DNA of 64,000 bases from an uncultured Candidatus Saccharibacteria bacterium. GTDB taxonomy: Bacteria > Patescibacteriota > UBA1384 > DTJR01. This document shows positions 9,141 through 48,314 of the stretch, piece after piece. Position 1 is the first letter of the stretch; every line of letters begins with the position of its first letter. The stretch covers positions 23,717 to 87,716 of the forward strand of contig CAZOJE010000001.1 in NCBI GenBank assembly GCA_964580065.1, written 5' to 3'. The notes under the pieces are model-generated. The model saw only the letters and a list, made by a program, of their open reading frames with translations. It did no database searches and was not told where the DNA came from. A program made the position numbers and the translations under genes.

Positions 9141-9215
9141 GGCGGCCGTAGTTTAACGGTAAAACTCCAGTTTGTGGCACTGGTGTCGAGGGTTCAACTC
9201 CCTCCGGTCGCCCCA
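9141..9215 (+). tRNA. tRNA-His (anticodon GTG), including G-1
   Basis: Extra 5' G pairing with discriminator C. Acceptor GCGGCCG/CGGTCGC. D-stem GTTT/AAAC. Anticodon loop TTGTGGC. T-arm GAGGG-TTCAACT-CCCTC. Confidence 0.85.
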
Positions 9216-9222
9216 TCAATAT

Positions 9223-9724: not shown

Positions 9725-9801
9725 GCCCCTGTAGCTCAACTGGATAGAGCGCCTGGCTTCGGACCAGGAGGTTGTGGGTTCGAGTCCTGCCAGGGGTACC
9801 A
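9725..9801 (+). tRNA. tRNA-Arg (anticodon TCG)
   Basis: GCCCCTG-TA-GCTC-AACTGGATA-GAGC-G-CCTGG-CTTCGGA-CCAGG...TTCGAGT...CAGGGGT-A-CCA. Confidence 0.85.
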
Positions 9802-10524: not shown

Positions 10525-11928
10525 TTAATTGATTACCGACAGTTCCTTATTTCTCAAGCTCATTTTGATCTTAAGGCAGCTCAGGAGTTCTCGTTTTTCC
10601 TCTCTTGCTCCCTCGCGAAGCACAAACTTTGAGTAGTCTCTAAGATCTACTTTGTTATCTAAATCCTTGCTGATTTTTTGTTTTAGGATTTTCGACATAA
10701 ATCTCTCGTATCTATTTATCTCCGACTGTAAATGCTTTTGAGTATTAAGCGTATCGACATTGATATCATCAATAATTTTACAAATTTGTTCTGTAATCTC
10801 TTCTTCTCTTACATACGGCTGTTTACAATTTCGGTCTTTGCCACCAGTGCAGTGATAGTAGACATATCTTCTGATTACGCCATTATCTTGCCTTTTGAAC
10901 TTTTCTTCAGCTGTAACACCTGATCCGCAAACTCCGCAGAAAATGAGCTTGGTAAAGTCAAACTCTTTAGTTCCTGGCTTGGCTCTTGGAGCTACCACTA
11001 ATCTTTCCTGAACTTTATCAAATAGCTCTTTTGTAATGATTGATTCATGTCCGGCTTGATACCAAATTCCAGCACCTCTCGGGTATTCAAATGAACCGTA
11101 GTAGTAATGATTATTCAAAATTGCATAAATTGAACTTAATACCACTGGTTTTCCTTGCCTGGTTCTAAAATTGATTGAATTAAGCCAGTTTAATATTGTC
11201 CGGCCACTTTCACCATTTAAGGATCGCTCAAAAATCTCATGAATTACTGGTGCACGTTCAGGATCTAAGAATATTTTTTTGTATCCCTTTTTACCGCCAA
11301 TTTCATTCACATATCCTAGCGGTGGAGCACAGGGTCTGAATCCCATTTCACATTTGGCCTTAAGGCCTCGTTTTACATTAATAACCTTGTTGTCATTTTC
11401 GAGCTTCGCTTGGCTTCCTAAAATCATCAATAAGAACTTGTCATTCGGTGAATTAGTGAATATTTGATTGTAAGTTCTTATCTCAACAAGATAATTTTGG
11501 TCCATCAGATCTACCAAGGTTCCCAAATCACCAGCGTTTCTGCTTAATCTATCTGGTGCCCAGGTCAGAATACCTTGAATCTTGTCAGCCCGAATATCTT
11601 TGATTATAGACATGAATACTGGCCGTTCGGCCGAGTTTTTAGCTGAATGACTTTCTTTTCTGATATCAGCAACCTCCAAGCCATCCCGATCGGCGACCGC
11701 TAACATCTCTTTGAGCTGAGAATCGATGGAAAGAGCCTGTAATTCGTCTCTTTCGGTTGATTTACGAGCATAAAGGCAGAACTTGATCTTCTTATTTCCT
11801 GGCAGTATTGCTTCCATGGTAGGAGGGAAGGTACCGCAAGGGCTGGGCATGTCAAGCTCATTAAATGACTTTACAACAGGAGTAAATCTGCTAACATTAA
11901 GGTTGTTAATTGTACATTTTGAATACAT
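10525..11928 (-). CDS. large serine recombinase (resolvase/invertase N-terminal catalytic domain + recombinase domain + zinc ribbon)
   Basis: FCLYARKSTERDELQALSIDSQ matches the catalytic Y-x-R-x-S-T ... S-x-x-x-Q motif. LTWAPDRLSRN. The C-terminus has C..C...C..C (CGVCGSG...YYHCTGG..C). Confidence 0.85.
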   Translation of the reverse strand: MYSKCTINNLNVSRFTPVVKSFNELDMPSPCGTFPPTMEAILPGNKKIKFCLYARKSTERDELQALSIDSQLKEMLAVADRDGLEVADIRKESHSAKNSAERPVFMSIIKDIRADKIQGILTWAPDRLSRNAGDLGTLVDLMDQNYLVEIRTYNQIFTNSPNDKFLLMILGSQAKLENDNKVINVKRGLKAKCEMGFRPCAPPLGYVNEIGGKKGYKKIFLDPERAPVIHEIFERSLNGESGRTILNWLNSINFRTRQGKPVVLSSIYAILNNHYYYGSFEYPRGAGIWYQAGHESIITKELFDKVQERLVVAPRAKPGTKEFDFTKLIFCGVCGSGVTAEEKFKRQDNGVIRRYVYYHCTGGKDRNCKQPYVREEEITEQICKIIDDINVDTLNTQKHLQSEINRYERFMSKILKQKISKDLDNKVDLRDYSKFVLREGAREEKRELLSCLKIKMSLRNKELSVIN

Positions 11929-12100
11929 TGCCTAAACCTTAGAAATTTTCTAAGGCATGGCATAAAATCCTTCGCAGATAATGAGCTCGTCGTCAGAGCA
12001 TCTGCGAAGGTTGTGATCCGAAAGGATTGCAGGTAGCCGTAAAAAGCTATCGCTGGCGGCGGGCTTTTTGTATCCGCTTCCGGTTAATCGAGGCAAGAAA

Positions 12101-13240
12101 ATGAAAATATTACATTTAAATCCGGATAAGAAATGGGTTCCGGTTGAAAAGCGATACTATAACGATGAAGCTCAACTTCAAGATCTCTTAACAAACGATG
12201 TTAACACTCTTCCGCTTGATGAAATAGGGTATGATTCCAAATTCGTCACAATAGGAAAGGAAGTAATCCTTCAAAATGGTGCGCTGGATGTTTTGGCGGT
12301 CAGTCCTCAAGGCCACATTGCTTTGATTGAAACAAAGCTCGAGAAAAACCCCGAAGTAAAGAGGACAGTCGTCGGTCAAATCCTCGGTTATGCCGCCTAT
12401 CTTTGGAATAAATCTTATGAAGAGATTGAAGGTAATTGTTTTAGAAAATTCCTACTCCAGCGTAAGGTCAATTTTCAAGGTTCGTTGTGTGAATATATGA
12501 AAGAGAAGATAGGAGAGGAGAATTTCTCAGAATCTGAATTCAAAGAAGGCCTGGAAAAGCGGCTTCGTCTCGGCAGTTTTACTCTTCTGATTGTTGTCGA
12601 TCAGGCCAATCAAGAGCTTAAAGATATCGCTAACTACCTGAATGATCGAACTGGGCAAGAAATCGACTTCTATGTGGTAGAGATGCAATTGGTTGGTGAT
12701 GAACAAGAGCATTTTTTGATACCCAGTCTAGCCAACCCTCCACGAAAAAATATTACCTACTCTGAGAAATCCAAGTCTAACGACAGCTATGATCGAACAC
12801 CGATTGCCAAAGAGGACTTTATAAAATTATTATCACAAAATGGCAAGAGAATTGCCGAAGCACTCCTTGGAAAATTTGAGGCAAGGGATGATGTAGATAT
12901 TGTTTGGCGCAAGAATGGATTCTCGCTGATGGCTAAGTATCCGAAGGATTTTGCCGTACCTGGTTATTCCACAAAATTTTCATTCTTATTTTTTAAGGCT
13001 CCTTCAAATGAACAAGACAGCGAGGAGCTTCAGTTTGGTTATTGCGAATGGCCCTATGAAAACATTCCCAAGCTCAAACCATTTATTGATGAATATGTTA
13101 GTTTCTATCGAACTATGCCTGGATACGACGCAAAACGTAAAACAACTAATGCGTTCAATGAATTTACCGTAGAACAGCAGAATAAATTTATTGGTCTCAT
13201 AGAGGAATCAGCTCGAGAATTAAAATCAAAAGTTTTATAA
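12101..13240 (+). CDS. PD-(D/E)xK nuclease-like hypothetical protein (NucS/DUF91-type motif in the N-terminal domain)
   Basis: ALDVLAVSPQGHIALIETKLEKNPEVKRTVVGQILGYAAYL fits the D...E.K core plus the Q-x-x-x-Y of NucS/DUF91-type restriction-endonuclease-fold proteins. The remaining 280 aa are unassigned. Confidence 0.5.
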   Translation: MKILHLNPDKKWVPVEKRYYNDEAQLQDLLTNDVNTLPLDEIGYDSKFVTIGKEVILQNGALDVLAVSPQGHIALIETKLEKNPEVKRTVVGQILGYAAYLWNKSYEEIEGNCFRKFLLQRKVNFQGSLCEYMKEKIGEENFSESEFKEGLEKRLRLGSFTLLIVVDQANQELKDIANYLNDRTGQEIDFYVVEMQLVGDEQEHFLIPSLANPPRKNITYSEKSKSNDSYDRTPIAKEDFIKLLSQNGKRIAEALLGKFEARDDVDIVWRKNGFSLMAKYPKDFAVPGYSTKFSFLFFKAPSNEQDSEELQFGYCEWPYENIPKLKPFIDEYVSFYRTMPGYDAKRKTTNAFNEFTVEQQNKFIGLIEESARELKSKVL

Positions 13241-13264
13241 ATAGTAATTAAGATTGGGGGAAAT

Positions 13265-13846
13265 ATGGCAAAGCAAACGTTTTCGAAAAAACAGCTTCTA
13301 ATAGCTGTAGGGGCAGCGGTAGTAATCTTTCTGATCGGATTTTATTCAGGAGATGCTTATCGCGTAAATAGAATTAAGAGTGCATTTAACAGCATCGGCT
13401 CGTTAGGCGAATCTCCCGATCTCAATAAAGACAAGAAACTGGTAGAAAAAAAGCTCGGGGAAGAAATCGATATTGTTAAGATGAAACTAACTGTTAATAA
13501 ATCCGAGGAAAAGAATTCCATATCAAGCAAATATGGTGATGCGAAGTCGGCTAAAGATAATGCAAAATTTGTCGTAGTAGATTTATCTGTTACAAACTCA
13601 ACTGATAGTGAATTTAACTTTTCTCCGAATAACACACTTCAACTGGTTGATAATCAGAATAGAAAGTATAAAACATACGACGACTCAATTGGCACAGTCG
13701 ACAACTATCTAGATGTGCGTGAACTATCACCAAGCATTGCCGAATCGGGCGTTCTCGTTTATGAGATTCCAAACGATGCCAGTAATTACTCACTTTGGAT
13801 CGATAAAGATGGATCTAGCGACAGATTCCAAGTCGGCCTAAAGTAA
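13265..13846 (+). CDS. membrane-anchored DUF4352-like protein
   Basis: N-terminal TM helix. KFVVVDLSVTNSTDSEFNFSPNNTLQLVDNQNRKY...GVLVYEIP pattern. Confidence 0.6.
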   Translation: MAKQTFSKKQLLIAVGAAVVIFLIGFYSGDAYRVNRIKSAFNSIGSLGESPDLNKDKKLVEKKLGEEIDIVKMKLTVNKSEEKNSISSKYGDAKSAKDNAKFVVVDLSVTNSTDSEFNFSPNNTLQLVDNQNRKYKTYDDSIGTVDNYLDVRELSPSIAESGVLVYEIPNDASNYSLWIDKDGSSDRFQVGLK

Positions 13847-13923: not shown

Positions 13924-16900
13924 ATGAAAGAAGAGCTAAAAGATATAAAAAGTAATATCGAGATTATGAATCTCATTAGGTATTGCCAAGGTTATATAAA
14001 GCTTGTTAATCCCTCGTTCAATAGATTCAGAATAAATTCTGACCCTATCGAAGAAAAATATCTAAGTACCGATATTCTATATCAAGACAGCGATGAGGAA
14101 GATGAATTTGAAATAAATCTGACAGAGTTTTACGAGAATGACCCTAAAAACGTTCCTGAAGAAGCAAAAGAAGAATATGCACAGCAAAAAGAACTCGCGC
14201 AACAGCTCGAGCAGATTAAGAATCGTTTTAATATAAGTGAGTACACAAAGCAGGTTAATCTCAATTTCGGATATTTTAAGGTAGAAGTGCCCGAACCGGA
14301 AGTAGATGAATTCTCTGAAGATGATACGGAGGAGAATAAGCCCAAGAAGAAAAAATCCGATATTTATCCATTATTCTCTTTACCAATTGAAGTTATAGTC
14401 GACAGGAAGTTTTCGATAAAATTGAAGGATGTGAATATTATTCCAAATATCGGTTTCTTATTCGATGTCCTTGGCGAAGAAAAATTTTATGAATTTGCTG
14501 ATTTTATAAACAAACAAGAGATAGAAGGAGCCCTCAGACTTCCGATACAAAAAAGAACTATCGATAACATATGGGCTGAGTTGAAAGCCAAACTTAAGCT
14601 TTCAGAAGCAATTTTTGACGAAAAGTCATTCGATCCTGATTTCTTTCTAGTTTCTCTTTCAGGCAAATCGAATTATTTCCTAGAGCAAGATTTTAATTCT
14701 TTGCTACAACTTGAAGAAACGGAATTTGAAGATACTTCACTGAGCAGCTGGAATACGGATGATCAACTATCAATAGATGAGCCAGTTAATGAACGAGACG
14801 GCGAATTATTTTTTCCATTTCCATACAATAAAGATCAGGTTGGCGTTCTATCTGCAATTAAAAATAAGGCTTGTATTGTAGAGGGACCTCCAGGCACAGG
14901 TAAATCTCAAACGATTGCAAATCTGTTGTGTCATTTTGCTGCAAATGGCAAAAGAGTGTTGTTCCTTAGCCAAAAAGCTCAAGCAATTAAGGTTGTGAAG
15001 GATTACTTAAAAAAACTAGATGTTCAATATCTTTATGGTTATATACCAAATAGATATTCCAGTCTCTATAATAGTGAAGAAGAAAGGGACGGTGCTTCAA
15101 TTTCATTACAATCAATTCATTTATATCTCAACTCATTAGCCTATGATGCTACTGATCAGACAGAAGAAGATCCAAGATCTATAAAATTTGAAGTTGAAGA
15201 TAAAATAAACGAAACCATAGAAATTGAAAGGAAAATTTACAGTACCTATCAAGAAAAAGAAGCATTAGAAAAATATAACATTGTAGCACTTGATTTTCAT
15301 AAGTTTAATAGCTCGGATGATGATGAAATATTACAACTTTTGGAATTAGATCAAACTATTGATGAGCTAAAGAGACAACTAGATAAATATTATTCGGAAA
15401 ATTCCAAGTATGTAATAAGGTTAAATAAATTGTTCGCAAATATTGATACGAACAATAGTCATTACTCTTTAGCAATCAACGGAGTAATAAACGATATACC
15501 GCAGAATGCATTTGAAAGGGATGGATTGATTCAAAATTTAAAAAAACAACTTATCAAGAACCATTTGAAAAAATATACAAATACCTTGCCGAAAGAAGTT
15601 TACAGTTTTTTTCAAGAGATAATAGATAAATCCACCTCAAGAGCAGAGAAGATAAAAGAACTAAATGGGTTAAAGGATTATTTCAGCTTTTGTGAAAATA
15701 CAATAAAGAATGAGTTGGATCATGTCGACTTTAATGGGCGACTAGAACGGATTGGTCTCAACCAGAAAAGTTTTAATAAACTTAAAAAAATTGTTAGCTC
15801 CGATCAGCATGGATTGGAAAATATACGAAGATACTCGCAAGTTCACTCAGAGATCGAAGAAATTAAACTTAGTAATCCGAATGAGCTAAATAAATATTTG
15901 CATAAAATACAGGATGCGGAAGGAAAGTATATTGCGAATTATCTTCAAAATATAATAATCAATAATCTTAGGGAGATCACTAAAAATGCGACGATCAAAG
16001 GAATCTTGGCAAGAATCGCTAAGAGCTTACAAAAGAGCAAGAAAGCATATAAGACATTCGACAAGTTTAAAAACGAGCCGATCAATTTTTATGTTATGAG
16101 AGAAGCGGTTCCTATCTGGATCATGGACTTGGAAGATGTAAGCAGGCTCATACCACTAGAAAAAAACTTATTCGATTATGTAATTCTCGATGAGGCCTCA
16201 CAATGCAATATCGCATATGCAATGCCTGCAATGTTCAGAGCAGAGAGAGCAATTTTGGTTGGTGATAGTGAGCAGATGAGGGACGACTCAGTAAGGTTTA
16301 AAACTAATAAGTCTTTGGAAATGCTGGCTAAAAAATTTGATATTCCCGACTTCTTGCAGATAAAGGCTATTGGAGATTCAGTTCAGTCAATTATTGATAT
16401 CGGTTACAAGAGAGGCTTTATGATGAAGCCATTAACTTATCACTATAGGTCGCCTAAAGAGCTTATCGGATTTTCAAACGATAATTTCTATGCGCCAAAA
16501 GGTAAAAAATTAAAGGTAATAAACACTAATTATCTGACCTATAAAGATACGAATAGAGTTTTAGTTAATCACATCATAAAACCAAGCAAGGAATTAGACA
16601 TTTCCAGCAAGTCGAATATTGCAGAAGCCAAATATATTTGCAAATTAGTAGAAGAGCTCAAAACAGATCCTAAGACAAAAAATAAGTCCATAGGGGTTCT
16701 ATCCTTCTTTGCTAATCAGGCAGCTCTTTTGAGAGATATGATAAAAGATGAAAAAATTAAAGTTTCTATTATTGAAGGAATCCAGGGAGACGAGAAAGAT
16801 ATAATTATTTACTCAATGGTAATTTGCGACCCAGGTCAAAAAAGAATGTATATTCCCCTAACTGGTGAAGGCGGAGAAATAAATAAAGGATTAAACGAAG

Positions 16901-18039
16901 GTCGAGTAAATGTTGCCTTTTCACGAGCAAGGCAGCAAGTTCATATCGTCACAAGTTTACCGGTAGAAAAATGGTCGGATGGAATCTGGATTAAAAGATA
17001 TCTTGAACATGTTCAAAAAAATGGCGAGGTAGATTTTTTTGAAACTGAGCTGAAGCCATTCGACTCTAAATATGAAGAAGATTTCTATCAAGAGATTTTA
17101 CGAGCCAATTTCACAAAAGGTTATATTATCCAAAATCAAGTTGAAAGCTGTGGATTTAAAATCGATTTCGTTCTAACAAATGTAGATAATGGAAAACAGT
17201 TGGCAATTGAATGTGACGGACCAACCCATTTTGAAAGTGAAGATGAAGGCGTTTATGTTCAGAGCGATTTCGAAAGACAGGCAATACTAGAAAGCGCCGG
17301 CTGGGTTTTTTATAGAACTAATTATGCCGATTGGATAAATAGGAATTTTAATCGAGCAACAATCACAGACGATATAAGTAGACACTTCGAGCTTTCAATA
17401 TTCAATAGCGAAGAAGATGAATCCACCAAACCGAATAAGGAAAGTGGCGATGAAGTAATCGACATAGATGTTGATGATTTAGAGGCACCCGATCAAAACG
17501 TAAAAGAGGGGAAGATATTCTCCGACACCTCAACTAAACTACCGGAAAAGGCTTTGCATCCCGTTGAGATGAAGATTGAAACAAAGAAAACTCAAAAAGA
17601 AAAATTAAGCGAGAAGAAAGATCGTCCGCACGCGAATAGTTTTAAAGATATATTTAAGTTTCCATTAGGTGGTAAAAGGAAACTTGTGGTTTCATCGTTT
17701 AATGATGACGAAGATTTAATAATTACAGAATATATAGAAACAGATTCCTATACAGGATATACACAGAAAAACATTGTTTTAAGTAAGAAAGACATTTTCC
17801 AGTTTGTTACAAAGTCTAGAGAGGTAATAAAGGACTCTGGAGAAGAAACGGTCCCTTGGCGAGGAAATGAAAAAGAAAAAATTATGATACGAATGATTGA
17901 TGATTCTACTATTGATGTCAGACAATATTTGAATACCAGTTGGTATTCTGGTTATACCAAAAAGGGGTTTAGGCTCGATAGTAAGACGTGGTCTAAATTT
18001 CTTGATGTATTGGAAAAAACAATAAGCCTCACAGAATAA
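13924..18039 (+). CDS. Upf1-like SF1 helicase (AAA_11/AAA_12, COG1112-type) fused to a DUF559/Vsr-like PD-(D/E)xK endonuclease domain, with a C-terminal extension containing a duplicated YTGYTQKNIVL / YSGYTKKGFRL module
   Basis: Walker A VEGPPGTGKSQT. Walker B VILDEASQ. Motif III/IV region YHYRSPKELIGFSNDNFY. Motif VI VAFSRARQQVHIV. Then KIDFVLTNVDNGKQLAIECDGPTHF...ERQAILESAGWVFYR is a DUF559-type nuclease. The acidic N-terminal region of about 300 aa is unassigned. Confidence 0.85.
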   Translation: MKEELKDIKSNIEIMNLIRYCQGYIKLVNPSFNRFRINSDPIEEKYLSTDILYQDSDEEDEFEINLTEFYENDPKNVPEEAKEEYAQQKELAQQLEQIKNRFNISEYTKQVNLNFGYFKVEVPEPEVDEFSEDDTEENKPKKKKSDIYPLFSLPIEVIVDRKFSIKLKDVNIIPNIGFLFDVLGEEKFYEFADFINKQEIEGALRLPIQKRTIDNIWAELKAKLKLSEAIFDEKSFDPDFFLVSLSGKSNYFLEQDFNSLLQLEETEFEDTSLSSWNTDDQLSIDEPVNERDGELFFPFPYNKDQVGVLSAIKNKACIVEGPPGTGKSQTIANLLCHFAANGKRVLFLSQKAQAIKVVKDYLKKLDVQYLYGYIPNRYSSLYNSEEERDGASISLQSIHLYLNSLAYDATDQTEEDPRSIKFEVEDKINETIEIERKIYSTYQEKEALEKYNIVALDFHKFNSSDDDEILQLLELDQTIDELKRQLDKYYSENSKYVIRLNKLFANIDTNNSHYSLAINGVINDIPQNAFERDGLIQNLKKQLIKNHLKKYTNTLPKEVYSFFQEIIDKSTSRAEKIKELNGLKDYFSFCENTIKNELDHVDFNGRLERIGLNQKSFNKLKKIVSSDQHGLENIRRYSQVHSEIEEIKLSNPNELNKYLHKIQDAEGKYIANYLQNIIINNLREITKNATIKGILARIAKSLQKSKKAYKTFDKFKNEPINFYVMREAVPIWIMDLEDVSRLIPLEKNLFDYVILDEASQCNIAYAMPAMFRAERAILVGDSEQMRDDSVRFKTNKSLEMLAKKFDIPDFLQIKAIGDSVQSIIDIGYKRGFMMKPLTYHYRSPKELIGFSNDNFYAPKGKKLKVINTNYLTYKDTNRVLVNHIIKPSKELDISSKSNIAEAKYICKLVEELKTDPKTKNKSIGVLSFFANQAALLRDMIKDEKIKVSIIEGIQGDEKDIIIYSMVICDPGQKRMYIPLTGEGGEINKGLNEGRVNVAFSRARQQVHIVTSLPVEKWSDGIWIKRYLEHVQKNGEVDFFETELKPFDSKYEEDFYQEILRANFTKGYIIQNQVESCGFKIDFVLTNVDNGKQLAIECDGPTHFESEDEGVYVQSDFERQAILESAGWVFYRTNYADWINRNFNRATITDDISRHFELSIFNSEEDESTKPNKESGDEVIDIDVDDLEAPDQNVKEGKIFSDTSTKLPEKALHPVEMKIETKKTQKEKLSEKKDRPHANSFKDIFKFPLGGKRKLVVSSFNDDEDLIITEYIETDSYTGYTQKNIVLSKKDIFQFVTKSREVIKDSGEETVPWRGNEKEKIMIRMIDDSTIDVRQYLNTSWYSGYTKKGFRLDSKTWSKFLDVLEKTISLTE

Positions 18040-18048: not shown

Positions 18049-18834
18049 ATGTGGTTCTGGATATTTGTAATCGGCGGCATAATTTTATATGCAATTGCTA
18101 ACTCTGGTAAGGAAAAGAGTAAACCAAATATTAGATATTCTTATAAAGTCAGTGAACCTAACTACAACACTGAATACTCATTTAAACCAGCGAAGCCGAG
18201 TGCGCTTCCAGAGAATGATCCCGTTATTGACGCACTGCGAGGATATATAGAGGCGGGCTGGGAAATAAAAATAAGATACTGCAATTCAAGCGGAACTACT
18301 ACTAGCAGAAGGATAAAACCTTTAGAAATTCTGGTATGGAACGGCCAGTATTATTTGAAGGCAGTCTGCCTATTAAGAGAGGAAGAAAGAACGTTTAAAA
18401 TTAAGAGAATACTCGCAATAAACGATGAGAGTATTGAAAAGAAAAGAGAGACAAAGGCTCAATTTATAAGAAGTAGGGTATTGCTTGTTGAAAAAAACGA
18501 GGAAATATTAGCTAGTTGTAAATCTTTTTTGAGAAAAAATAGAATTTCAACTTCAACCGCTCAAGATGGAATTTCAGCTTTAGACAAGGCCGAGAAAGGC
18601 AACTTCGATTTGATTTTCCTCAGTCAAAATATCCCATACGTTAGTGGAATTGAGGTACTCCGCAATATCAAAAAAAGAGGTTTGACTGGAGCGAAAGTAG
18701 TTATGGTAACAACTAAACCAGATGCAAAAATAAAGGAAGAGGCCGAGCGACTTGGTGTAAGCGACTACTTTGTGTTTTCGGATGATTCTAAGGAGGAGCT
18801 TACTTCTGCCCTGGAATATTTCTTATCACAATAA
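18049..18834 (+). CDS. membrane-anchored WYL-domain + response-regulator receiver (REC) fusion protein
   Basis: N-terminal TM helix WFWIFVIGGIILYAIA. WYL domain IKIRYCNSSGTTTSRRIKPLEILVWNGQYYLKAVCLLREEERTFKIKRI. REC domain with VLLVE, FDLIFLS (phospho-acceptor Asp), VVMVTT and KP. Confidence 0.75.
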   Translation: MWFWIFVIGGIILYAIANSGKEKSKPNIRYSYKVSEPNYNTEYSFKPAKPSALPENDPVIDALRGYIEAGWEIKIRYCNSSGTTTSRRIKPLEILVWNGQYYLKAVCLLREEERTFKIKRILAINDESIEKKRETKAQFIRSRVLLVEKNEEILASCKSFLRKNRISTSTAQDGISALDKAEKGNFDLIFLSQNIPYVSGIEVLRNIKKRGLTGAKVVMVTTKPDAKIKEEAERLGVSDYFVFSDDSKEELTSALEYFLSQ

Positions 18835-18840: not shown

Positions 18841-20094
18841 ATGAATAAAATAATCCTACAAATATCTGAGCTCAATAAATTAATATCCGACCATATTAAT
18901 CATCTCGAGGAATTTGAGGTTGAAGCAGAAATTTCCGACTGGAGGCTGTTCGGTGGAAAGCTTTTCTATTTTAAGCTCAAAGACAAAAAATCATCCGTTT
19001 CCGCAATGACAAACATTTTTGAGTTAACAAACTGGAGAGATTTTGAGGATGGCATGTTGGTCCGCGCAAAAATTTCAATAAAGTTCAATCAGCTCAAAGG
19101 CACTCTCTATGCATGGGTCGAGGAAATGAACCCACACGGCGAAGGTGCTTTAAAGATAGCTTTCGAGAAGCTTAGAAAACGTCTCGAAACAGAGGGATTG
19201 TTTTCCCAAGAAAGAAAGAGGCATATTGTTCGTTACCCACAACGCTTAGGACTCATTACCTCCAAGGATGGTGCTGCAATCAAGGATTTCGAAAAGATAT
19301 TAAATTCGAGGATGGGAGGCCTGACTATTTATTTTCATCCCGTCAAAGTTGAAGGGAAAGATGCTGTTCCCAGCATTATTGAAGCTTTTTCTTATTTTAA
19401 CAATTTTAAAGAATCGCTTGATGCTATAGTTTTAATTCGAGGAGGCGGTAGTCTTGAAAATCTTCAGGTATTTAATGATGAGAGGATAGCCCGATGTGTT
19501 GCGGGTTCTCGTTACCCAGTCATTTGTGGGGTTGGCCACGAGCATGATGTAAGTTTGTGTGATTTGTGTGCTGACGTTAGAGCTTCGACACCGTCCAATG
19601 CAGCTGAATTGCTTGTCGAGAACAAGGTCCATACACAGAAGATTATAGACACATCGTTAGATAAAATCAGGGGCATCATCAAATTCAAAATTGGTGGAAC
19701 CTCCCAGCAAATAGAGAGCCATTTATTGTTAATCAGCCACTCCATCAAGAACGAACTTCAAAGTAAAAAACTTATCGTTATCGAAATTAATTCTTCGCTT
19801 TTTCGTTATAAATCACAATTTAGTAATTTTGAGCAACAAATTTCTCAATCAGTTGTATCGATATCAAGAGTATTTGTTCACAGATTAGATATTTCTAAAC
19901 AATACCTCGCTCAAACAGCTGTTTTTCTTAAATCGGTAAGTCCTAAAAATATAATGGCAATGGGATATTCTGTTGTCAAAGACGAAAAACAAAAAATCGT
20001 ACGAGACTCCGAACAGTTAGAAATAGAATCTAACTTATGCGCCTACTTTTTAAAGGGGTCTATTAAAGCTAAAGTAATTAAGAAAGGGGTATAA
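18841..20094 (+). CDS. xseA: exodeoxyribonuclease VII large subunit
   Basis: LGLITSKDGAAIKD...LIRGGGSLENLQVFNDERIARCVAGSRYPVICGVGHEHDVSLCDLCADVRASTPSNAAE matches conserved XseA blocks. Confidence 0.9.
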   Translation: MNKIILQISELNKLISDHINHLEEFEVEAEISDWRLFGGKLFYFKLKDKKSSVSAMTNIFELTNWRDFEDGMLVRAKISIKFNQLKGTLYAWVEEMNPHGEGALKIAFEKLRKRLETEGLFSQERKRHIVRYPQRLGLITSKDGAAIKDFEKILNSRMGGLTIYFHPVKVEGKDAVPSIIEAFSYFNNFKESLDAIVLIRGGGSLENLQVFNDERIARCVAGSRYPVICGVGHEHDVSLCDLCADVRASTPSNAAELLVENKVHTQKIIDTSLDKIRGIIKFKIGGTSQQIESHLLLISHSIKNELQSKKLIVIEINSSLFRYKSQFSNFEQQISQSVVSISRVFVHRLDISKQYLAQTAVFLKSVSPKNIMAMGYSVVKDEKQKIVRDSEQLEIESNLCAYFLKGSIKAKVIKKGV

Positions 20095-20095
20095 A

Positions 20096-20296
20096 ATGCC
20101 AGAAGAAAAGACTTTTGCAGAAAAAATGAAAGAATTAGATACTATAAAGGAAAAATTTGAATCGGGAAATTTCGATTTAGAGAAAGATTTGCCGTTATAT
20201 AAGAGAGCTGTTCAGCTTGCTACCGATTTAAAAGAGCATCTGAATAAGCTCGAGAATGAGATTATAGAGATCGAAGCAAAAAAGGAAAATGAATAA
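20096..20296 (+). CDS. xseB: exodeoxyribonuclease VII small subunit
   Basis: 66-aa coiled-coil protein FAEKMKELDTIKEKFESGNFDLEKDLPLYKRAVQL, immediately after xseA. Confidence 0.85.
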   Translation: MPEEKTFAEKMKELDTIKEKFESGNFDLEKDLPLYKRAVQLATDLKEHLNKLENEIIEIEAKKENE

Positions 20297-21830
20297 AAAA
20301 GATAAAAAGATAACAGCTTCCATTCTTTATGACTATGTTCAGTGCCCACACAAAGTATGGCGGGATGTTTATGGTCCACAAAATGAGAAAATCATCGAGC
20401 CAAATCCTTTTGTAGAGTTGCTATGGCGGAAGGGTATACAACACGAAAAAAGGGTTGTGTTGACCTTTGGCGAATATCTTGATTTAAGTAAGGGAACCCT
20501 GGATGAGCGAATCTCAAAAACCATCGAAGCTCTCAGGGATGAAGTGCCATTGATTTATCAAGGGGTATTAAAACATGAAAATTTACTTGGAATACCCGAC
20601 CTCTTGAAACGCCAGTCTGACGGATCATACATTCCTATCGACATTAAGTCTGGTTCAGCCTTTGAAGGTGGAAGTGATGATGGCGCTGGGGATGAGGGTA
20701 AACCAAGATTACATTATGCAATTCAGCTCTGCTTGTATAATGAACTGTTAAAGAAACTTGGATTTGCAGAGCATGATAAAGGTCAAGTGATCGATATACA
20801 TCACGACCAGGTTGAATATGATCTATCGGCGCCCAAAGGATTAAGAGATAAGACGACTTGGTGGAAAAATTACGAAAAGATAAAAACTGATGTTAGGTTA
20901 CTTATGCTGGACCAGACAAAAAATAAGCCGTCTTATTCGAGTAAATGCAAGTTGTGCCCCTGGTATCAAAGTTGCAAGAGGTGGTGCAAAGAAAATAATG
21001 ATCTGACGAATATTTTTGACATGGGAAGAGCTAGTAGGGATAGAATAAACGAAGACCTCTATATCGAAAATTTAAATGATTTAATGTCGATTGATATTGC
21101 TTCGATAATGCAACAAAAAGAACAAGAAAAAAAGGCAGGAAATAAAACTTTTCTATTTAACATTTCCGACAACACCCTGAAGAAGGCTGTTGAAAGAGCG
21201 AGAATCTCTTTAATAACTAAGATTCCTGTATTATACGAACCGATTGATTTTCCCGATGTGAGTTATGAACTTTTTTTTGACATTGAAGATGATCCGACTC
21301 AGGAATTTGTATATTTACACGGTGTCTATGAGAGAAGAAACGGCGCAGAGCGTTTTCTAGATTTTACGGCTAAAGAAATTAGTCCTGAGGCCGAAAAAGA
21401 GGCATGGGCCAACTTTTGGAAGTATATTGACTCGCTACCACAAGATGATTTTACGGTTTACTATTACACGCATCATGAAAAGACAACATATACCAAAATG
21501 CAAAAGCTCTATCCGGATGTGATATCAGCGGAAAAGATTGAGAATTTTTTTTCAAATCCTAACGTGATCGATTTGTACAAAGTTGTACGATCAAAGACAA
21601 ACTGGCCTGTACCAAGTTATTCACTCAAAGAGATTGCGGTTTACCTCGGCTTTGAATGGCGCGATGAAACACCTTCTGGCGCACTCTCCATCCAGTGGTT
21701 TAATGAGTATATAGAGAAGAAAGATCCTAAGATGTTGGAGAGAATACTGCTCTATAACGAAGATGACTGTAAAGCAACGTTAGTTATTAAGGATGCAATT
21801 AGTAAGTTAAATAATGAGTTGGCTAAGTAA
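20289..21830 (+). CDS. RecB-family nuclease, TM0106 type (Cas4-like PD-(D/E)xK N-domain with Cys cluster + C-terminal RNase H-like exonuclease-fold domain)
   Basis: YDYVQCPHKVW...IPDLL...IDIKSG matches the Cas4/RecB nuclease core. Cys cluster CKLCPWYQSC..C. C-terminal YNEDDCKAT. Confidence 0.7.
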   Translation: MNKKDKKITASILYDYVQCPHKVWRDVYGPQNEKIIEPNPFVELLWRKGIQHEKRVVLTFGEYLDLSKGTLDERISKTIEALRDEVPLIYQGVLKHENLLGIPDLLKRQSDGSYIPIDIKSGSAFEGGSDDGAGDEGKPRLHYAIQLCLYNELLKKLGFAEHDKGQVIDIHHDQVEYDLSAPKGLRDKTTWWKNYEKIKTDVRLLMLDQTKNKPSYSSKCKLCPWYQSCKRWCKENNDLTNIFDMGRASRDRINEDLYIENLNDLMSIDIASIMQQKEQEKKAGNKTFLFNISDNTLKKAVERARISLITKIPVLYEPIDFPDVSYELFFDIEDDPTQEFVYLHGVYERRNGAERFLDFTAKEISPEAEKEAWANFWKYIDSLPQDDFTVYYYTHHEKTTYTKMQKLYPDVISAEKIENFFSNPNVIDLYKVVRSKTNWPVPSYSLKEIAVYLGFEWRDETPSGALSIQWFNEYIEKKDPKMLERILLYNEDDCKATLVIKDAISKLNNELAK

Positions 21831-22785
21831 TTTATTTTCGAGCGAACCTGCTAAAACAAATCAAAACGCTGTTTGCGTTACTAAAAGCGAAATAATTGCT
21901 GGCTCGAGATTTTCTATACCCGAGCCAACTAGGTCGTTGGTTTTTGTAACTGATGATTCTCCCGATAAAGCCCAAGCTCTAGGGCCATCAATAAGGATTA
22001 CTTTCAATCTGGGTAGTCTTGAAACCGAACGGGAGGTTGAAGAAGGAAATATTTTTTCCGAACCTAGCCTAATATGGACAAGACTTCCAATAAAACCAAA
22101 TAGTGATTTAGAAGATAAGCCAATGTATTATCCATGCTATGTCCATCTAAATCCTCTGCAGAGATATCAGTATCTTAGTTGGCTTCAGGACGTTACCAAG
22201 AAGACAAATTTGAGCTATGTCTTTTTATATTATTATGGTCTCGAAAGGCACCTATTGATCGGTGACTATGATAAAGCAGTTGATGAAATACTTAGATTAA
22301 TTAAATATCATGATCATGATAAATTTCGCTACTATGTAATTACACCACTTATCGTTGCCAGCCTGTACAGAAAGAGGGTGGATGTATTCAAAAAGGCTGA
22401 CTTTTTGTCTCGCGAGGTTTCCAATGAAGCACTGATCATGCGAGCCCTACAGAATATTCACTTAAATGCTGATGACTTGATCAAATTATCTTCATCGGTC
22501 GGGTTTAGAAATAAGAGGTATATTCATCAGAAGCCAGAATTATTTAAAGAAATTCTGATTGAAAAAATGCAAGAAGATGAAGCAAAAAGCGTCCCCATTC
22601 TCAATAGGTTCGAAATAAGTCAGCTCCAAAAGGAAAAAATATCTGCTTTTTGCAATCTATCGATCCCGGAGAGATTCAAAAAGCTTGAGACTCCCCAGCT
22701 CTTAAGGAATAAGCGCTTTGAAAAATTAATTTTCAACTTAATAACCGAAACTCACGCAGAAGTGAAGATCAGAAAAGAAGTATAA
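21814..22785 (+). CDS. TerB-N domain-containing protein (hypothetical; conflict-system associated)
   Basis: YYPCYVHLNPLQRYQYLSWLQD...SYVFLYYYGLERHLL matches, as I remember it, the TerB_N signature (Y.FLYlYGLERR). Confidence 0.5.
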   Translation: MSWLSNLFSSEPAKTNQNAVCVTKSEIIAGSRFSIPEPTRSLVFVTDDSPDKAQALGPSIRITFNLGSLETEREVEEGNIFSEPSLIWTRLPIKPNSDLEDKPMYYPCYVHLNPLQRYQYLSWLQDVTKKTNLSYVFLYYYGLERHLLIGDYDKAVDEILRLIKYHDHDKFRYYVITPLIVASLYRKRVDVFKKADFLSREVSNEALIMRALQNIHLNADDLIKLSSSVGFRNKRYIHQKPELFKEILIEKMQEDEAKSVPILNRFEISQLQKEKISAFCNLSIPERFKKLETPQLLRNKRFEKLIFNLITETHAEVKIRKEV

Positions 22786-22814: not shown

Positions 22815-24413
22815 TCAAGATCTCCTATATGGCAGCCCATCTGACCCGAACTCAATCGAAGAGCTTTTGCCCGGTCCCCAAGGATGGCGATTTAATCTCT
22901 TGAACATCTCTCGATCGTCTTTGTCTCCCCAATCCTCGCCTCGTCTTTTTCCTAAAGTTCCACTAATTAGGCCATTGGTCTCAACAAACAGGACGCCACA
23001 ATTACTTGGCATTTTCTCAATTAGTCCAAGAATTAAGATGCTAAATGCATCTGCCATGTCATCATGTCTTGTTCTACCGAAATCCACGAGTTGCTTGATC
23101 AGTTCTTCGCAGCCATTTCGGGGAAAATACACTTTGCTCTGGTAAACCTTATTGGCAGCAAGTTCGAGGCGTTCTCTTTTATCTTTGCCTCTAATTTTGA
23201 CTCCAACTGCATCGATGTTGCGCTCCCTTAACTGTTGAGTCACATAGCCCTGAAGCATCGTATCTTCAACATAAAACTTATTGCTGAATCTGCCATCGTG
23301 TACTTTGCAGATATCCTCGGCACGCTCCAGAATTTCAGTAAATTTCAGGCGTGCATTGACGGGGTTTGGCAAGATATAAACTTCAAAGTTATCGCCCGAT
23401 CCAACAACTTTTGCCGAAACAAGCGAGGTAAAATCAGCTGTCGCTTTTTCGCTAATTGCCAAGTCAATTCCGGTGGCGAAACTATAGGATTGATTTCGTA
23501 AGTTTTCTGGCAGTTTATCGTAGTATTGAATCTTGTCTTCGGTAATGACACGCTCTCTGTCATCAATAATGTGAAGCAGATATTCTTTATTCCATGTTTT
23601 TTCGTCTCCAACTCGGAGTCGTTCATCTTCGACTGCCTTCAAATCCTCGTACTTTCCAGGCCAGGCAATATTGTCATACTCATCAAGAAGCGGATATTTT
23701 CTGAATATTCCCGAGAGCTTCTCGTGGACAATAAGATTTTCAAGACGCTTCAGTAAGCTGTCTTCGTGAAGCAGATTACCGACTATTATGATTTTAGTTC
23801 CCTTATCACCGAGAGGGAACACTTCGCTCGTTAACCAGTTGAAAGTACTCTCTCTGGCTTCCTGTGTTTTCACCGAATCTGTGTTCTCAACATCGTCAGC
23901 TACTATCAGGTCCGGGCGATATCGGCCGTGTCTGATGCCGCGAAAACTTTGATCCTTGGATACGGCAATGATTTTGGCGTTGTACCGGGGAATAACTAAA
24001 CTACAATTATTCCACTCATCGGTTTCTTGAAAGGGACCAAGATCACGCTTCAATAAGTCGTTTGTTTCAAGCTCGCGTTTTAAGTTTTTGAAGTGAAGTT
24101 TGGCCTGTTCGGCAGTCTGCGAGATTAATACCACAAACTTCTTTTGTGGACGTCCAACAACGGCCCAGATTGGATAGCTTAGAGTCATAAGCGTTGATTT
24201 GGCTGATCCGCGAAAACTACATATAGCGGCGAGACTTATATCATCTCGCTCAGTAATCGCAAACATTTCTTTGTGAAATTCTGCAATTTTGTACTGAACG
24301 AATGAACTTAAGTAGGTGTGAAAGAACCATACATGGCTTTTCTTGGTTAGATCTGCCCTTGTTGCTTGGTTTTTGATGATTTTACTTATTTGGTTTTTCT
24401 TTTTTCTTTTCAT
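22815..24413 (-). CDS. phage terminase large subunit
   Basis: Walker A-like SFRGSAKSTL. Walker B LIVADDVEN. C-terminal RNase H-like nuclease ATGIDLA...RHDDMADAF. Confidence 0.85.
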   Translation of the reverse strand: MKRKKKNQISKIIKNQATRADLTKKSHVWFFHTYLSSFVQYKIAEFHKEMFAITERDDISLAAICSFRGSAKSTLMTLSYPIWAVVGRPQKKFVVLISQTAEQAKLHFKNLKRELETNDLLKRDLGPFQETDEWNNCSLVIPRYNAKIIAVSKDQSFRGIRHGRYRPDLIVADDVENTDSVKTQEARESTFNWLTSEVFPLGDKGTKIIIVGNLLHEDSLLKRLENLIVHEKLSGIFRKYPLLDEYDNIAWPGKYEDLKAVEDERLRVGDEKTWNKEYLLHIIDDRERVITEDKIQYYDKLPENLRNQSYSFATGIDLAISEKATADFTSLVSAKVVGSGDNFEVYILPNPVNARLKFTEILERAEDICKVHDGRFSNKFYVEDTMLQGYVTQQLRERNIDAVGVKIRGKDKRERLELAANKVYQSKVYFPRNGCEELIKQLVDFGRTRHDDMADAFSILILGLIEKMPSNCGVLFVETNGLISGTLGKRRGEDWGDKDDREMFKRLNRHPWGPGKSSSIEFGSDGLPYRRS

Positions 24414-24882
24414 TTTCCTCTCCTTTGGAAGTAATGAGCGTGGCCAGTTCTAGTGCTTTCATAATGCTCTCTTCCTGCTCCTTAGTTAACTCATCTTTTT
24501 TGATTTCTAGACCACCCGATACCTCAAGTTTATTCTTGTAGGCGTTGTGGCGGTGATTGAGCCAATACATCACAGCGGTCAGATTATTATCTTTCATCGC
24601 TGTAATGAGCTTGCTTTCTGCCAAATCATTTATGAATTGGCAACCCTCCTCAATTGCTTTATCACTTGAAGCAGCAAATTTTTTGCTTGCTTTTCGCCAG
24701 CGATAATATGTATTTCGACTGATACCAACTTTTTGGCAAGCGACTTCGATAATTGGGGTTTTGCTGAATTGCTCAACTAGGGTTTTTTGATTTTGCGCAG
24801 TTCTGATCTGAATCTTCGAATCTACATCACTCATTTTGCCTTCTTGATCAGCTCTGACTTTTGCCCGGTGAATTTTTCCCAA
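24382..24882 (-). CDS. putative terminase small subunit (HTH protein)
   Basis: Overlaps the terminase large-subunit start. HTH CQKVGISRNTYYRWRK. Position and size are typical. Confidence 0.5.
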   Translation of the reverse strand: MGKIHRAKVRADQEGKMSDVDSKIQIRTAQNQKTLVEQFSKTPIIEVACQKVGISRNTYYRWRKASKKFAASSDKAIEEGCQFINDLAESKLITAMKDNNLTAVMYWLNHRHNAYKNKLEVSGGLEIKKDELTKEQEESIMKALELATLITSKGEENEKKKEKPNK

Positions 24883-26159
24883 CGATTTCTAATCACCTCG
24901 GCATAGATCGGACACTTTTCCATTACATAACAGCGACGCTTGAGTGTTTCCGCAGCAATCAAGGTGCTTCCAGATCCGCCGAAGGGTTCGATAATAAGGT
25001 CATCTCTTTTGGTGAGAACCTTGATGTACGGAATGAGGATTTCAACAGGTTTTGTGCCGAAAATAATCGCTTGCCCCGTACTTTTCTCATCGCCAGCTTT
25101 CGATTCAATCACATCGGTGGGACAATACTGCTTGCCTTTTTCATATCCTTCCCACTGAGCATCGCCCGATGTGGCAAACAGTGCCGTCTGATACTCATTT
25201 TGCAGCAGCTCTTCTTCGGGTTCAAGATTCAACTGTTTACCGGGCGTTGTACCAACTACTGCGATGTCATATTTAGAGAAGAATTTGTGCTTAGCGGAAT
25301 ATCCTTGATTTCTATTTGGAATTTTCCAAATAATCATATTGCGGATAGTCCAAAATTTTTCCATCGCTCCCCATAGCTCACGGACATTTTTCCAGTTCTC
25401 AAAGGCAATGATATTGAAGTTTTCATTTTGGACCTTGGCAACGTTGGCCGTCCAGAGTTCAATGAAATCAGGCGGAAGCTCGTCAGTACCAATATATTTT
25501 CTGTTTTTCTTGGCTCCGAACCCGTCTGTCGGTTTGCCGTGACGCTTTCCCTGGAGGTAATTGAGAACATATGGCTCATCAGTGAAACACATGTCGGCTT
25601 TCTCGCCATTCATTAGCTTGATAATGTCATCTTCTACCATGCTGTTTCCGCACATCAACCTGTTTTTGCCGAGGATGTATGTATCTCCCGGTTCAATTTC
25701 TATCTTTGAAATCTTGAGCTTTTCAAGTTCACGATTTACGTCGAATTGTTCTGGCTCTGTTTCGATATCAAAGATATCGTCAAGTTCTTCCGAATCAAAT
25801 CCGACATCAGCTAGAAATCTTTCGTCAAATTCGGCGAGAAGTTTGAAGTCAAATTCTCCCGTGTTGCGATTTAATCGCAAGTTGAGCTCTTTTTCTTTTT
25901 CGATGTCTGCGATATCGACATAGACAACAGGAACTTTTTCAATTCCAATTTCTTTGGCTGCGACAACTCTCATGTGCGCACCAATTATTATATTCTTGCG
26001 ATTTGGATTTGAGTTGACGATCGCTGGATCAACGAATCCAAATTTCTTGATACTTTCCTTCAGGTCAGAAAGTTGTTTATCATTCCATTTTCTTGGATTG
26101 TAATCGCTAGCGATCAAATCCTTAGTTGATACATATTCTATTTTGTGTGTGTTGTTCAT
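24831..26159 (-). CDS. ParB-like nuclease domain fused to an N6/N4 DNA methyltransferase (beta class)
   Basis: ParB N-terminus LIASDYNPRK...L..SI...GFVDPAIV. Methyltransferase motif IV-like FTDEPYV and motif I EPFGGSGSTLIAA, in beta-class order. Confidence 0.85.
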   Translation of the reverse strand: MNNTHKIEYVSTKDLIASDYNPRKWNDKQLSDLKESIKKFGFVDPAIVNSNPNRKNIIIGAHMRVVAAKEIGIEKVPVVYVDIADIEKEKELNLRLNRNTGEFDFKLLAEFDERFLADVGFDSEELDDIFDIETEPEQFDVNRELEKLKISKIEIEPGDTYILGKNRLMCGNSMVEDDIIKLMNGEKADMCFTDEPYVLNYLQGKRHGKPTDGFGAKKNRKYIGTDELPPDFIELWTANVAKVQNENFNIIAFENWKNVRELWGAMEKFWTIRNMIIWKIPNRNQGYSAKHKFFSKYDIAVVGTTPGKQLNLEPEEELLQNEYQTALFATSGDAQWEGYEKGKQYCPTDVIESKAGDEKSTGQAIIFGTKPVEILIPYIKVLTKRDDLIIEPFGGSGSTLIAAETLKRRCYVMEKCPIYAEVIRNRWEKFTGQKSELIKKAK

Positions 26160-42184: not shown

Positions 42185-42237
42185 ATAGTTGACTTTCAGT
42201 CTATAAAAAGCGAAAATTGTTCTTCGCAGGAAGAATA

Positions 42238-44223: not shown

Positions 44224-44242
44224 GTAGATATACTTAAAAGTA

Positions 44243-45091: not shown

Positions 45092-45140
45092 CGCAAGTGT
45101 CAAGAGGCATATTTTTTAAACCGATATTTGTTCTCAATGT

Positions 45141-48011: not shown

Positions 48012-48031
48012 GCGCAATCCTCTGAAGGGAA

Positions 48032-48262: not shown

Positions 48263-48270
48263 CAGTCTCC

Positions 48271-48309: not shown

Positions 48310-48314
48310 AACTT

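Follow-up and report, generated by a model that had tools for sequence, protein, structure and literature searches.

The 64,000-nucleotide stretch considered here, the whole of which we call the window, comes from an uncultured Candidatus Saccharibacteria bacterium (contig CAZOJE010000001.1, positions 23,717 to 87,716 of the forward strand). It is part of a bacterial chromosome, with uvrABC, fpg, recO, mraZ/W and mur genes, and it holds a helicase-nuclease gene followed at once by a gene for a 261-residue protein in which a hydrophobic N-terminal helix, a WYL domain and a receiver domain are joined in a single chain. The receiver domain of this protein has lost three of its five catalytic residues, including the phospho-acceptor aspartate, and the gene stays beside the same type of helicase in every locus with enough sequence to show its surroundings. 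Searches of about 15 billion proteins yielded a family of seven sequences (six full-length and one fragment), to which all statements on the family below refer. The parts of the WYL/pseudo-receiver gene are as follows.

18049..18834, + strand: whole gene, encoding a WYL / pseudo-receiver protein with a predicted membrane anchor (from the open reading frame list, an identical copy and homologues)
18049..18105, + strand: N-terminal hydrophobic helix, amino acids 1-19, MWFWIFVIGGIILYAIANS; predicted single-pass anchor, N-out/C-in
18106..18219, + strand: low-complexity, poorly conserved tether, amino acids 20-57 (low model confidence, low identity)
18220..18423, + strand: WYL domain, amino acids 58-125, a helix plus a five-stranded Sm/SH3-like beta-barrel (PF13280)
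18424..18474, + strand: linker helix between WYL and receiver, amino acids 126-142 (from the structure model)
18475..18831, + strand: aspartate-less pseudo-receiver, amino acids 143-261, of (beta-alpha)5 fold (PF00072, Foldseek)

The list of open reading frames (ORFs) gives the gene 261 codons plus a stop. It opens with an ATG, with an AGGA motif 7 nt upstream, and it begins 10 nt after the helicase-nuclease stop, which ends at 18039, leaving a 9-nt spacer. An original prediction, made from the letters of the window alone, had placed the gene in the same way, and the peptide strings that it quoted are present in the translation. A frameshift or fragment artefact is ruled out by alignments with homologues, which run from end to end for both the WYL gene and the upstream helicase, and by the lack of any other in-frame start before the WYL domain; an identical copy of the protein is on record in NCBI and Logan. 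Scans for promoters and terminators gave results at chance level and were uninformative.

Both globular domains score above their curated Pfam cut-offs, with WYL (PF13280) covering amino acids 59-124 (E 9.4e-13, 48.4 bits, cut-off 21.8) and Response_reg (PF00072) covering amino acids 144-241 (E 1.6e-16, 60.9 bits, cut-off 30.2); the WYL models of PADLOC match the protein at E 1e-16. The AlphaFold2 (AF2) model, with a mean predicted local distance difference test (pLDDT) of 84.6, has a helix at residues 2-18 (pLDDT 84-90), a disordered stretch in the tether (pLDDT <50 for residues 23-40), a WYL region made of a helix at 58-69 and five strands at 73-124 (pLDDT about 90), a linker helix at 127-139 with a dip in pLDDT at 130-135, and a canonical (beta-alpha)5 receiver fold at 143-260. 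Foldseek searches with this model returned receiver domains only, among them the solved receivers Spo0F, VicR, PmrA and CheY, with a TM-score of about 0.8 on the target and at most 0.41 on the query, indicating that no solved protein has the two-domain layout of WYL followed by receiver. No helix-turn-helix (HTH) or other DNA-binding family was found in the protein by Pfam at E<=0.1, and both the winged HTH (wHTH) and the WCX domain are missing, with a receiver fold standing after the WYL domain (Pfam, AF2, Foldseek). The arrangement of a predicted transmembrane helix, WYL and receiver, as well as the lack of a recognisable DNA-binding domain, had been read from the letters alone, and both are now supported by the Pfam domains, the modelled fold and the conservation of the N-terminal helix.

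The N-terminal segment has a mean Kyte-Doolittle hydropathy of 2.2 over 17 residues and 1.76 over 19, the residues that follow it (19-35) carry a net charge of +4, and a hydrophobic segment is kept at this end in all six full-length members of the family. The helix is predicted to insert into the membrane as a single pass. The AxA-like 'AIA' is not conserved across the family, which argues against a cleaved signal peptide. The tether that follows varies in length and is only 19-36% identical between members.

To set the catalytic columns of the receiver, we aligned the domain with HMMER to the solved receivers PorX (8p6f/8ted) and Spo0F (6ifh), together with alignments of the family. In the window protein the pair of acidic residues is replaced by E148-K149, the phospho-acceptor aspartate by S192 and the lysine by F243, and the threonine is retained as T221. 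The acceptor lies within 'DLIFL-S-QNIP', which pairs with 'DIVFL-D-ENMP' in a solved receiver, and the lysine column within 'DYFV-F-S', which pairs with 'DYLI-K-P'; hence, Thr221 and a single acidic residue (E148) are all that remain of the catalytic set. The loss extends through the family. Over the seven sequences the acceptor column reads S, N, D, N, N, N, N (aspartate lost in six), the lysine column F, F, Y, I, F, Y, Q (lysine lost in all seven) and the second acidic column K, P, S, A, T, A, T, and 19 positions of the receiver are invariant in the same seven sequences. By a published definition, a receiver that misses any of its five catalytic residues is a pseudo-receiver, and one that misses the aspartate is an aspartate-less receiver (ALR) (PMC12632262); judged by its alignment, the domain is both. 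Fifteen of the solved pseudo-receiver structures are dimers without phosphorylation (PMC12632262). One member of the family (locus L016, 10133-10906) retains an acceptor aspartate, in DFIFI-D-QEIP, and lacks the lysine and the second acidic residue; the family may be part-way through losing its receiver chemistry, or this residue may represent a reversion.

These columns bear directly on the role first suggested for the protein, that of a true response regulator, which an orphan histidine kinase phosphorylates and which passes a phosphorelay signal to the helicase-nuclease. That suggestion took the phospho-acceptor aspartate, the threonine and the lysine to be all conserved; the threonine is indeed in place, but the alignments to solved receivers put a serine and a phenylalanine in the other two columns, and the aspartate that had been seen is probably D187 in 'FDLIFLS', 5 residues upstream of the acceptor column. 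A response regulator would fit the Response_reg score and the canonical fold, the retention of T221, E148 and the switch residue Y240, and the aspartate of the L016 homologue. It does not fit Ser192, Phe243 and Lys149 in the window protein, nor the presence of asparagine, the classic non-phosphorylatable substitution, at the acceptor position of five other members, none of which has a lysine at the canonical position. Furthermore, the position after the threonine (T+1) holds Thr, Asn, Ser or Glu in the family and never the small Ala or Gly typical of active receivers, and no histidine kinase or histidine phosphotransfer (HPt) protein was found among the 48 proteins scanned from the window. Because the aspartate is lost in six of seven sequences and the lysine in all seven, a phosphorelay input is not supported, and we regard this model as very improbable. 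A receiver-like domain of another kind, cRec, was also considered for this region and is ruled out, as there is no match to PF20274 at E<=0.1 and the aspartates are lost.

The WYL domain points in another direction. A profile of the WYL region, compared with solved proteins, matches PafBC (6sj9, E 1.7e-9) and next 8bnv, which is DdPif1, together with 8bns (E 5.8e-8). The entries 8bnv and 8bns are Pif1 helicases of superfamily 1 (SF1) from Deferribacter and Sulfurihydrogenibium with a fused C-terminal WYL domain, and R464, R491, R495, R498 and R501 of DdPif1 have been named as contacts to single-stranded DNA (ssDNA) (PMC9964779). In the alignment these residues correspond to R87, R110, R114, K117 and R120 of the window protein, so that all five basic contacts are kept, and R87, C107, R/K110, R114, K117 and R120 are retained in all six full-length members. 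This pattern of basic residues plus a cysteine agrees, in both the AF2 model and the alignment, with the ligand groove described for WYL domains, a Sm/SH3-like beta-barrel with conserved basic residues and a frequent cysteine (Makarova 2014, PMC4012209). Fusions of WYL domains to SF1 helicases are documented (PMC4012209; PMC9964779); in TePif1 high-affinity binding of ssDNA depends on the fused WYL domain, which also links the ATPase activity to unwinding (10.1101/163188), and the WYL domain of CapW binds ssDNA (PMC11662680). By its likeness to these domains, the WYL domain of the window protein would be expected to bind ssDNA as well. The domain had been described as that of a ligand-sensing regulator; its identity as WYL holds, and the regulator framing is adjusted, given that it most resembles the ssDNA-binding WYL domains fused to SF1 Pif1 helicases.

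The family is small. A word-indexed search of 5.8 billion clusters recovered the identical copy and three homologues with 41-60% identity, and a HMMER profile search run exhaustively over 1.84 billion representatives gave, beyond the family, one 125-aa fragment and receiver-only matches, with no other full-length lineage in which WYL is joined to a receiver (REC) domain. Ten of the matched proteins resembled the family in length (about 260 aa) and in having two matched stretches, but all of them turned out to be tandems of two receiver domains (REC-REC) and thus not WYL-REC proteins. Walking along homologues of the helicase added two members that the word index had missed (L016 10133-10906 and L017 4450-5256). 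Two scans of genome contigs and scans of metagenome and viral contigs gave no further usable members. A 287-aa metagenome protein (L015 475-1338) that starts with MWFWVFVIGG, nearly the same hydrophobic anchor, was set aside as unrelated; its likeness does not extend past residue 27 and probably arose by chance.

Within this family the WYL/pseudo-receiver gene lies 7-38 nt downstream of the helicase-nuclease gene in all five loci with enough sequence, namely the window and the loci L003, L004, L016 and L017, where the helicases are 68-74% identical to that of the window. What follows the pair changes from locus to locus: xseA and xseB in the window, a TM0106 nuclease in L004, small ORFs in L003 and L016, and an unrelated secreted or membrane protein in L017. 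The helicase is the only invariant neighbour. The functional coupling to the neighbouring helicase-nuclease that had been proposed is therefore supported by strict adjacency, and in the co-occurrence check WYL-REC and Upf1-like helicase genes were adjacent in five of five loci with a helicase at least 68% identical. Because the gene always sits just after it, the protein looks like a dedicated partner of the helicase-nuclease. Helicase relatives at 49% and 43% identity come without a WYL/pseudo-receiver gene, indicating that the gene is a lineage-specific accessory of one helicase subclade. The WYL gene also diverges faster than the helicase (60% against 74% identity in L003, and 41% against 68% in L004).

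A family this small (seven sequences), with lost catalytic residues, might also be what is left of a chance gene fusion, a decaying protein with a dead receiver and no current role. Such decay would not be expected to keep all three modules in members that are 38-61% identical to each other, nor to leave 19 receiver positions and the WYL contacts invariant. Indeed, the AF2 model is confident, and no member shows a frameshift or truncation, apart from one fragment at a contig end. We find decay hardly credible as an explanation for this protein.

The partner enzyme is a large protein with an extension of its own:

13924..18039, + strand: 1371-aa Upf1-like SF1 helicase with an MTES_1575/Vsr-like endonuclease (Pfam AAA_11, AAA_12, MTES_1575)
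17644..18036, + strand: C-terminal extension of the helicase, a tandem Whirly/PUR/PC4-like module predicted to bind single-stranded nucleic acid (AF2, Foldseek)

PADLOC matches the helicase-nuclease to PDC-S37 (230 bits), with further matches to Hhe and MkoA/C, and NCBIfam matches it to ProA (234.9 bits, cut-off 1500) and Hhe (135.3 bits, cut-off 2000). The ProA and Hhe matches span only the C-terminal half of the helicase plus the nuclease, and because the scores fall far below the curated cut-offs, we do not consider the enzyme a member of these defence families. We found no useful literature on PDC-S37, nor on ProA as an anti-phage protein. The helicase family as a whole is widespread, with more than 2,000 matches from candidate-phyla bacteria, from the DPANN and Asgard archaea and from further groups.

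The C-terminal 130 residues of the helicase are a conserved tandem duplication without annotation, marked by the motif I-D-[IV]-R-x-Y ... Y-[TS]-G-[YF]-T-K-[KR]-G-[FI]-R, for which there was no Pfam match and no sequence match in the Protein Data Bank (PDB). AF2 models the extension as two beta4-alpha units (pLDDT 89.8, predicted template modelling score (pTM) 0.81), and Foldseek aligns these to MRP1/2 (E 1e-4), to PURA repeat I-II (TM-score 0.60), to Whirly proteins and to Sub1/PC4. This Whirly/PUR-like module points to single-stranded nucleic acid as the substrate of the system. Most members of the large helicase family have the extension, whether or not a WYL partner accompanies them, and the L004 orthologue lacks it; since the L004 helicase still has its WYL partner, extension and partner are independent of each other.

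The pairing of a helicase with a WYL protein is not limited to this family. The WYL proteins outside it that come closest are free-standing and 76-113 aa long; they are here called mini-WYLs and share the motif C-x-L-R-x-E-E-R-T-F-K-I-x-R-I. Each of the three closest (87-113 aa) lies 4-12 nt downstream of an AAA_11/AAA_12 helicase gene, and two of these three are inside Type I restriction-modification (R-M) operons with McrB or GmrSD. The helicase/mini-WYL pairs, in which the helicase is Upf1-like (AAA_11/AAA_12) and in some cases fused to NERD, are found in four loci:

L008, 2643-6264: helicase/mini-WYL pair, lying between the hsdR and hsdS genes of a Type I R-M operon
L010, 2639-6279: helicase/mini-WYL pair, placed as in L008 between hsdR and hsdS (Type I R-M operon)
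L005, 3212-6342: helicase/mini-WYL pair
L009: helicase/mini-WYL pair

The partner helicases of the mini-WYLs are about 30% identical to the window's in their motor domains, and they score best against the Mokosh helicase models and the uncharacterised candidate PDC-M16A. More distant mini-WYLs accompany HSP70 plus a UvrD-like helicase, or lie in a DarT/kinase island. A further match of the mini-WYLs is to 'RTasWYL-YodC', a PADLOC model associated with defence reverse transcriptases. The helicase/mini-WYL pairs may constitute an undescribed two-gene module. The order of an Upf1-like helicase followed by a WYL protein thus recurs, and the window family is a more elaborate form of it, with an anchor and a pseudo-receiver added.

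Most characterised WYL proteins regulate defence or DNA-damage genes (PMC4012209, PMC11662680), and the protein could, in principle, be an HTH-less regulator of its operon at the transcriptional or post-transcriptional level, for example by sequestering a DNA-binding partner at the membrane and releasing it when the WYL domain binds its ligand. In keeping with such a role, it heads a tight string of six genes in the window, and an HTH_17 gene precedes the helicase in L003 and L016. However, the protein itself has no DNA-binding domain, wHTH or WCX, the window has no HTH_17 gene beside the pair, and the downstream genes vary in every locus, the helicase being the sole constant neighbour. Its WYL subtype, moreover, is nearest to helicase-fused and minimal stand-alone forms. 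We therefore judge a regulator of this kind to be unlikely.

The surroundings of the pair in the window include the following features:

18841..22785, + strand: xseA, xseB, a TM0106-type RecB/Cas4-like nuclease with an RNase H-like domain, and TerB_N (Pfam, NCBIfam); context in this window only
10525..11928, - strand: large serine recombinase (Pfam Resolvase, Recombinase, Zn_ribbon_recom)
9725..9801: tRNA-Arg, followed by a 183-aa unknown ORF and then the serine recombinase

The downstream genes are separated by gaps of at most 6 nt or overlap, and xseA follows the WYL gene by 6 nt. The xseA and xseB genes, for the ssDNA-specific exonuclease VII, stand between the WYL gene and the TM0106 nuclease (18841..21830); they may be either the host's housekeeping copy or cargo of the element. 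In L004 the TM0106 nuclease (67% identical) comes directly after the WYL gene, with no xseAB, and xseAB is absent from all four other loci. The TerB_N protein (21814..22785), whose gene overlaps that of the RecB-like nuclease by 17 nt, has a weak match to SngA of Shango (47.6 bits); it is ruled out as part of a conserved module, being unrelated to the 321-aa protein found downstream in L004. Repair genes (uvrB, uvrA, uvrC, fpg, recO) are unusually concentrated at 42217..56226, besides xseAB at 18.8-20.3 kb.

These neighbours invite a reading in which the helicase-nuclease, the WYL protein, exonuclease VII (XseAB) and the RecB/Cas4-like nuclease process ssDNA intermediates in repair or recombination, either for the host or for the replication or recombination of the mobile element itself. 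The 6-nt gap to xseA/xseB and the recurrence of the TM0106 RecB-like nuclease (in the window and L004) would be explained, as would the richness of the window in repair genes (uvrABC, fpg, recO); WYL domains act in DNA-damage or replication settings in PafBC, DriD and Pif1, and there is no named defence family whose cut-off the helicase reaches. The association with xseAB, however, is missing from the other four loci, where the pair is instead accompanied by a recombinase or a reverse transcriptase, and Type ISP R-M genes lie beside more distant helicases. The patchy, lineage-restricted spread of the pair and the faster divergence of WYL (41-60% identity, against 68-74% for the helicase) are more typical of conflict systems, and a membrane anchor would be unusual for a repair factor. 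A repair accessory is thus a possible reading, though in our view a doubtful one.

The serine recombinase by the tRNA-Arg makes the region look like an integrated mobile element. On the far side of the pair (22815..26159, minus strand) are genes for the small and large subunits of a terminase and a ParB-N6/N4 methyltransferase. A search for att sites found no flanking direct repeats of at least 16 nt, only short chance pairs. Just upstream of the helicase (12068..13846) lie genes for a 390-aa protein that matches PADLOC PDC-S11 (62 bits) and for a 193-aa DUF4352 protein with an N-terminal hydrophobic segment (phrog_806); the two may be further defence cargo of the same element. In L003 (1153-5829) and L016 (654-5962) the genes upstream of the helicase form a common block that resembles a mobile element and encodes proteins of about 172, about 508 and about 65 aa, DUF5659 and then, next to the helicase, HTH_17. 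In the place of a 363-aa unknown protein of L003, L016 carries a 778-aa reverse transcriptase (RVT_1); L003 also has a serine recombinase. Two NUDIX hydrolase genes (9172..9717 and 29237..29782) bracket the presumed island in the window; the true start of the first probably lies further downstream, since its listed TTG start (9172) overlaps a tRNA-His (9142..9215).

Taking the architecture, the lost receiver chemistry, the WYL contacts, the gene linkage and the mobile-element context together, we lean, if only slightly, towards the protein being a dedicated accessory subunit of the helicase-nuclease that is tethered to the membrane, independent of phosphorylation and able to bind ssDNA, and that is neither a transcription factor nor a response regulator. 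The single N-terminal anchor would hold or place the complex at the membrane, with the WYL domain and the pseudo-receiver in the cytoplasm. The WYL domain would bind single-stranded nucleic acid, either the strand that the helicase makes or ssDNA that an invading or damaged genome exposes, and the pseudo-receiver would provide phosphorylation-independent dimerisation or docking, the role that WCX plays in HTH-WYL-WCX regulators. Together, the two domains would modulate, recruit or restrain the upstream helicase-nuclease. The pair is carried on integrative mobile elements of candidate-phyla bacteria, where it would most likely serve in defence or in conflict between elements.

Several points weigh against such an accessory subunit or some part of it. 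The membrane anchor is a prediction from hydropathy, charge bias, conservation and the AF2 helix, and the arrangement of the domains relative to each other in the AF2 model (pTM 0.50) is uncertain. Physical contact between the WYL/pseudo-receiver protein and the helicase is putative, being proposed from the linkage of their genes. As the L016 member retains the acceptor aspartate, though not the lysine or the second acidic residue, some residual phosphorylation in part of the family is conceivable. Most of the helicase family works without such a partner, which indicates that the partner is not essential to the core activity of the helicase. The packing with xseA and xseB in the window could point to DNA repair, and because the ProA and Hhe scores are far below the cut-offs, a role of the pair in defence would follow by analogy only.

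A more specific version of the accessory-subunit reading can be put forward tentatively, and we hold it with considerably more reserve. The pair may be an unrecognised two-gene immune module of candidate-phyla bacteria. Its membrane-tethered WYL/pseudo-receiver sensor would notice single-stranded nucleic acid at the cell envelope, such as the DNA of an incoming phage or plasmid, and would then activate or recruit the Hhe/ProA-like helicase-nuclease with no phosphorylation involved. The module would then stand at the elaborate end of an undescribed class, in R-M islands, of an Upf1-like helicase plus a downstream mini-WYL.

With a catalytically dead receiver, phosphorelay control of the nuclease falls away. 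The combination of anchor, WYL and pseudo-receiver widens the known combinations of both WYL and pseudo-receiver proteins, and it is a recognised question how a pseudo-receiver is turned on or off. The WYL domain of this family lends support to the idea that a WYL domain can work in trans as an ssDNA-binding subunit of an SF1 helicase, beyond sensing in transcription factors, and the recurring helicase/mini-WYL pairs in R-M islands suggest that this may be general past one rare family. The pair is also a compact two-gene candidate, taken from candidate-phyla bacteria that have received little study, for work on how helicase-nuclease defence enzymes are controlled.

Each part of the system is of a known kind, and WYL modules that serve SF1 helicases are already established; what sets the protein apart is how the parts are joined. 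We found no description in the literature of a WYL-receiver fusion, of a membrane-anchored WYL protein such as this one, or of a pseudo-receiver joined to WYL, and the papers that mention both WYL and receiver domains do not describe their fusion. The claim of the original prediction that the architecture had not been described is thus borne out, both by the literature and by the profile search of 1.84 billion representatives, which revealed no other lineage.

Among receivers, FrzS, RitR and the N-terminal domain of KaiA are similar in having the receiver fold without the acceptor aspartate and other catalytic residues (PMC4395418, PMC12632262), and aspartate-less and pseudo-receivers are expected to act by conformation, dimerisation or partner binding (PMC4395418, PMC12632262). 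Unlike the described pseudo-receivers, that of the window is joined to a WYL domain and a membrane anchor, an arrangement that we did not find described; a 2025 review of pseudo-receivers makes no mention of WYL (PMC12632262). The only receiver-type domain that we found linked to WYL in the literature is cRec (PF20274; Iyer et al. 2021, PMC7824862), which is likewise a divergent receiver outside two-component systems, and whose conflict systems also involve WYL. However, cRec keeps its catalytic aspartates and has been proposed to be a cyclic-phosphate phosphoesterase (PMC7824862), whereas the window protein has lost them.

The partner enzyme resembles Hhe, ProA, PADLOC PDC-S37 and Mokosh, its best-matching models, in having an Upf1-like SF1 core with a C-terminal nuclease of Vsr/MTES_1575 type. 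It differs from Hhe, ProA and PDC-S37, which are described as single proteins, and from Mokosh, which is described with a phospholipase D (PLD) nuclease, in having a WYL partner, and its scores lie far below the cut-offs.

Among WYL proteins, BrxR, CapW, PafBC and DriD share with the window protein the WYL domain, ssDNA as the likely ligand, a setting in defence or DNA-damage loci, and a domain after WYL that would, in our case, probably serve dimerisation. The window protein differs from them in lacking a wHTH, in having a pseudo-receiver in the position of WCX, in its predicted membrane anchor, and in being tied to one enzyme gene and not to a regulon. The C-terminal WYL domains of Pif1 helicases (TePif1, DdPif1 8BNV, SsPif1 8BNS) are of the same subtype, with the motif C-x-x-R-x-[DE]-E-R-x-F-[KR]-I-x-R-I, and they too belong to an SF1 helicase setting; in contrast to these, the window WYL is part of a separate downstream polypeptide with an anchor and a pseudo-receiver, and the helicase beside it is of Upf1-like type (AAA_11/AAA_12), not Pif1, and carries a nuclease. 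For a WYL protein that acts as an accessory subunit, the nearest functional precedent is WYL1 of Cas13d (type VI-D CRISPR), a WYL accessory that reportedly acts directly on the neighbouring nuclease effector and not through transcription. WYL1 differs in being soluble, in having a ribbon-helix-helix (RHH) domain, in binding single-stranded RNA and in partnering an RNA-guided HEPN nuclease, with no receiver fold and no helicase partner.

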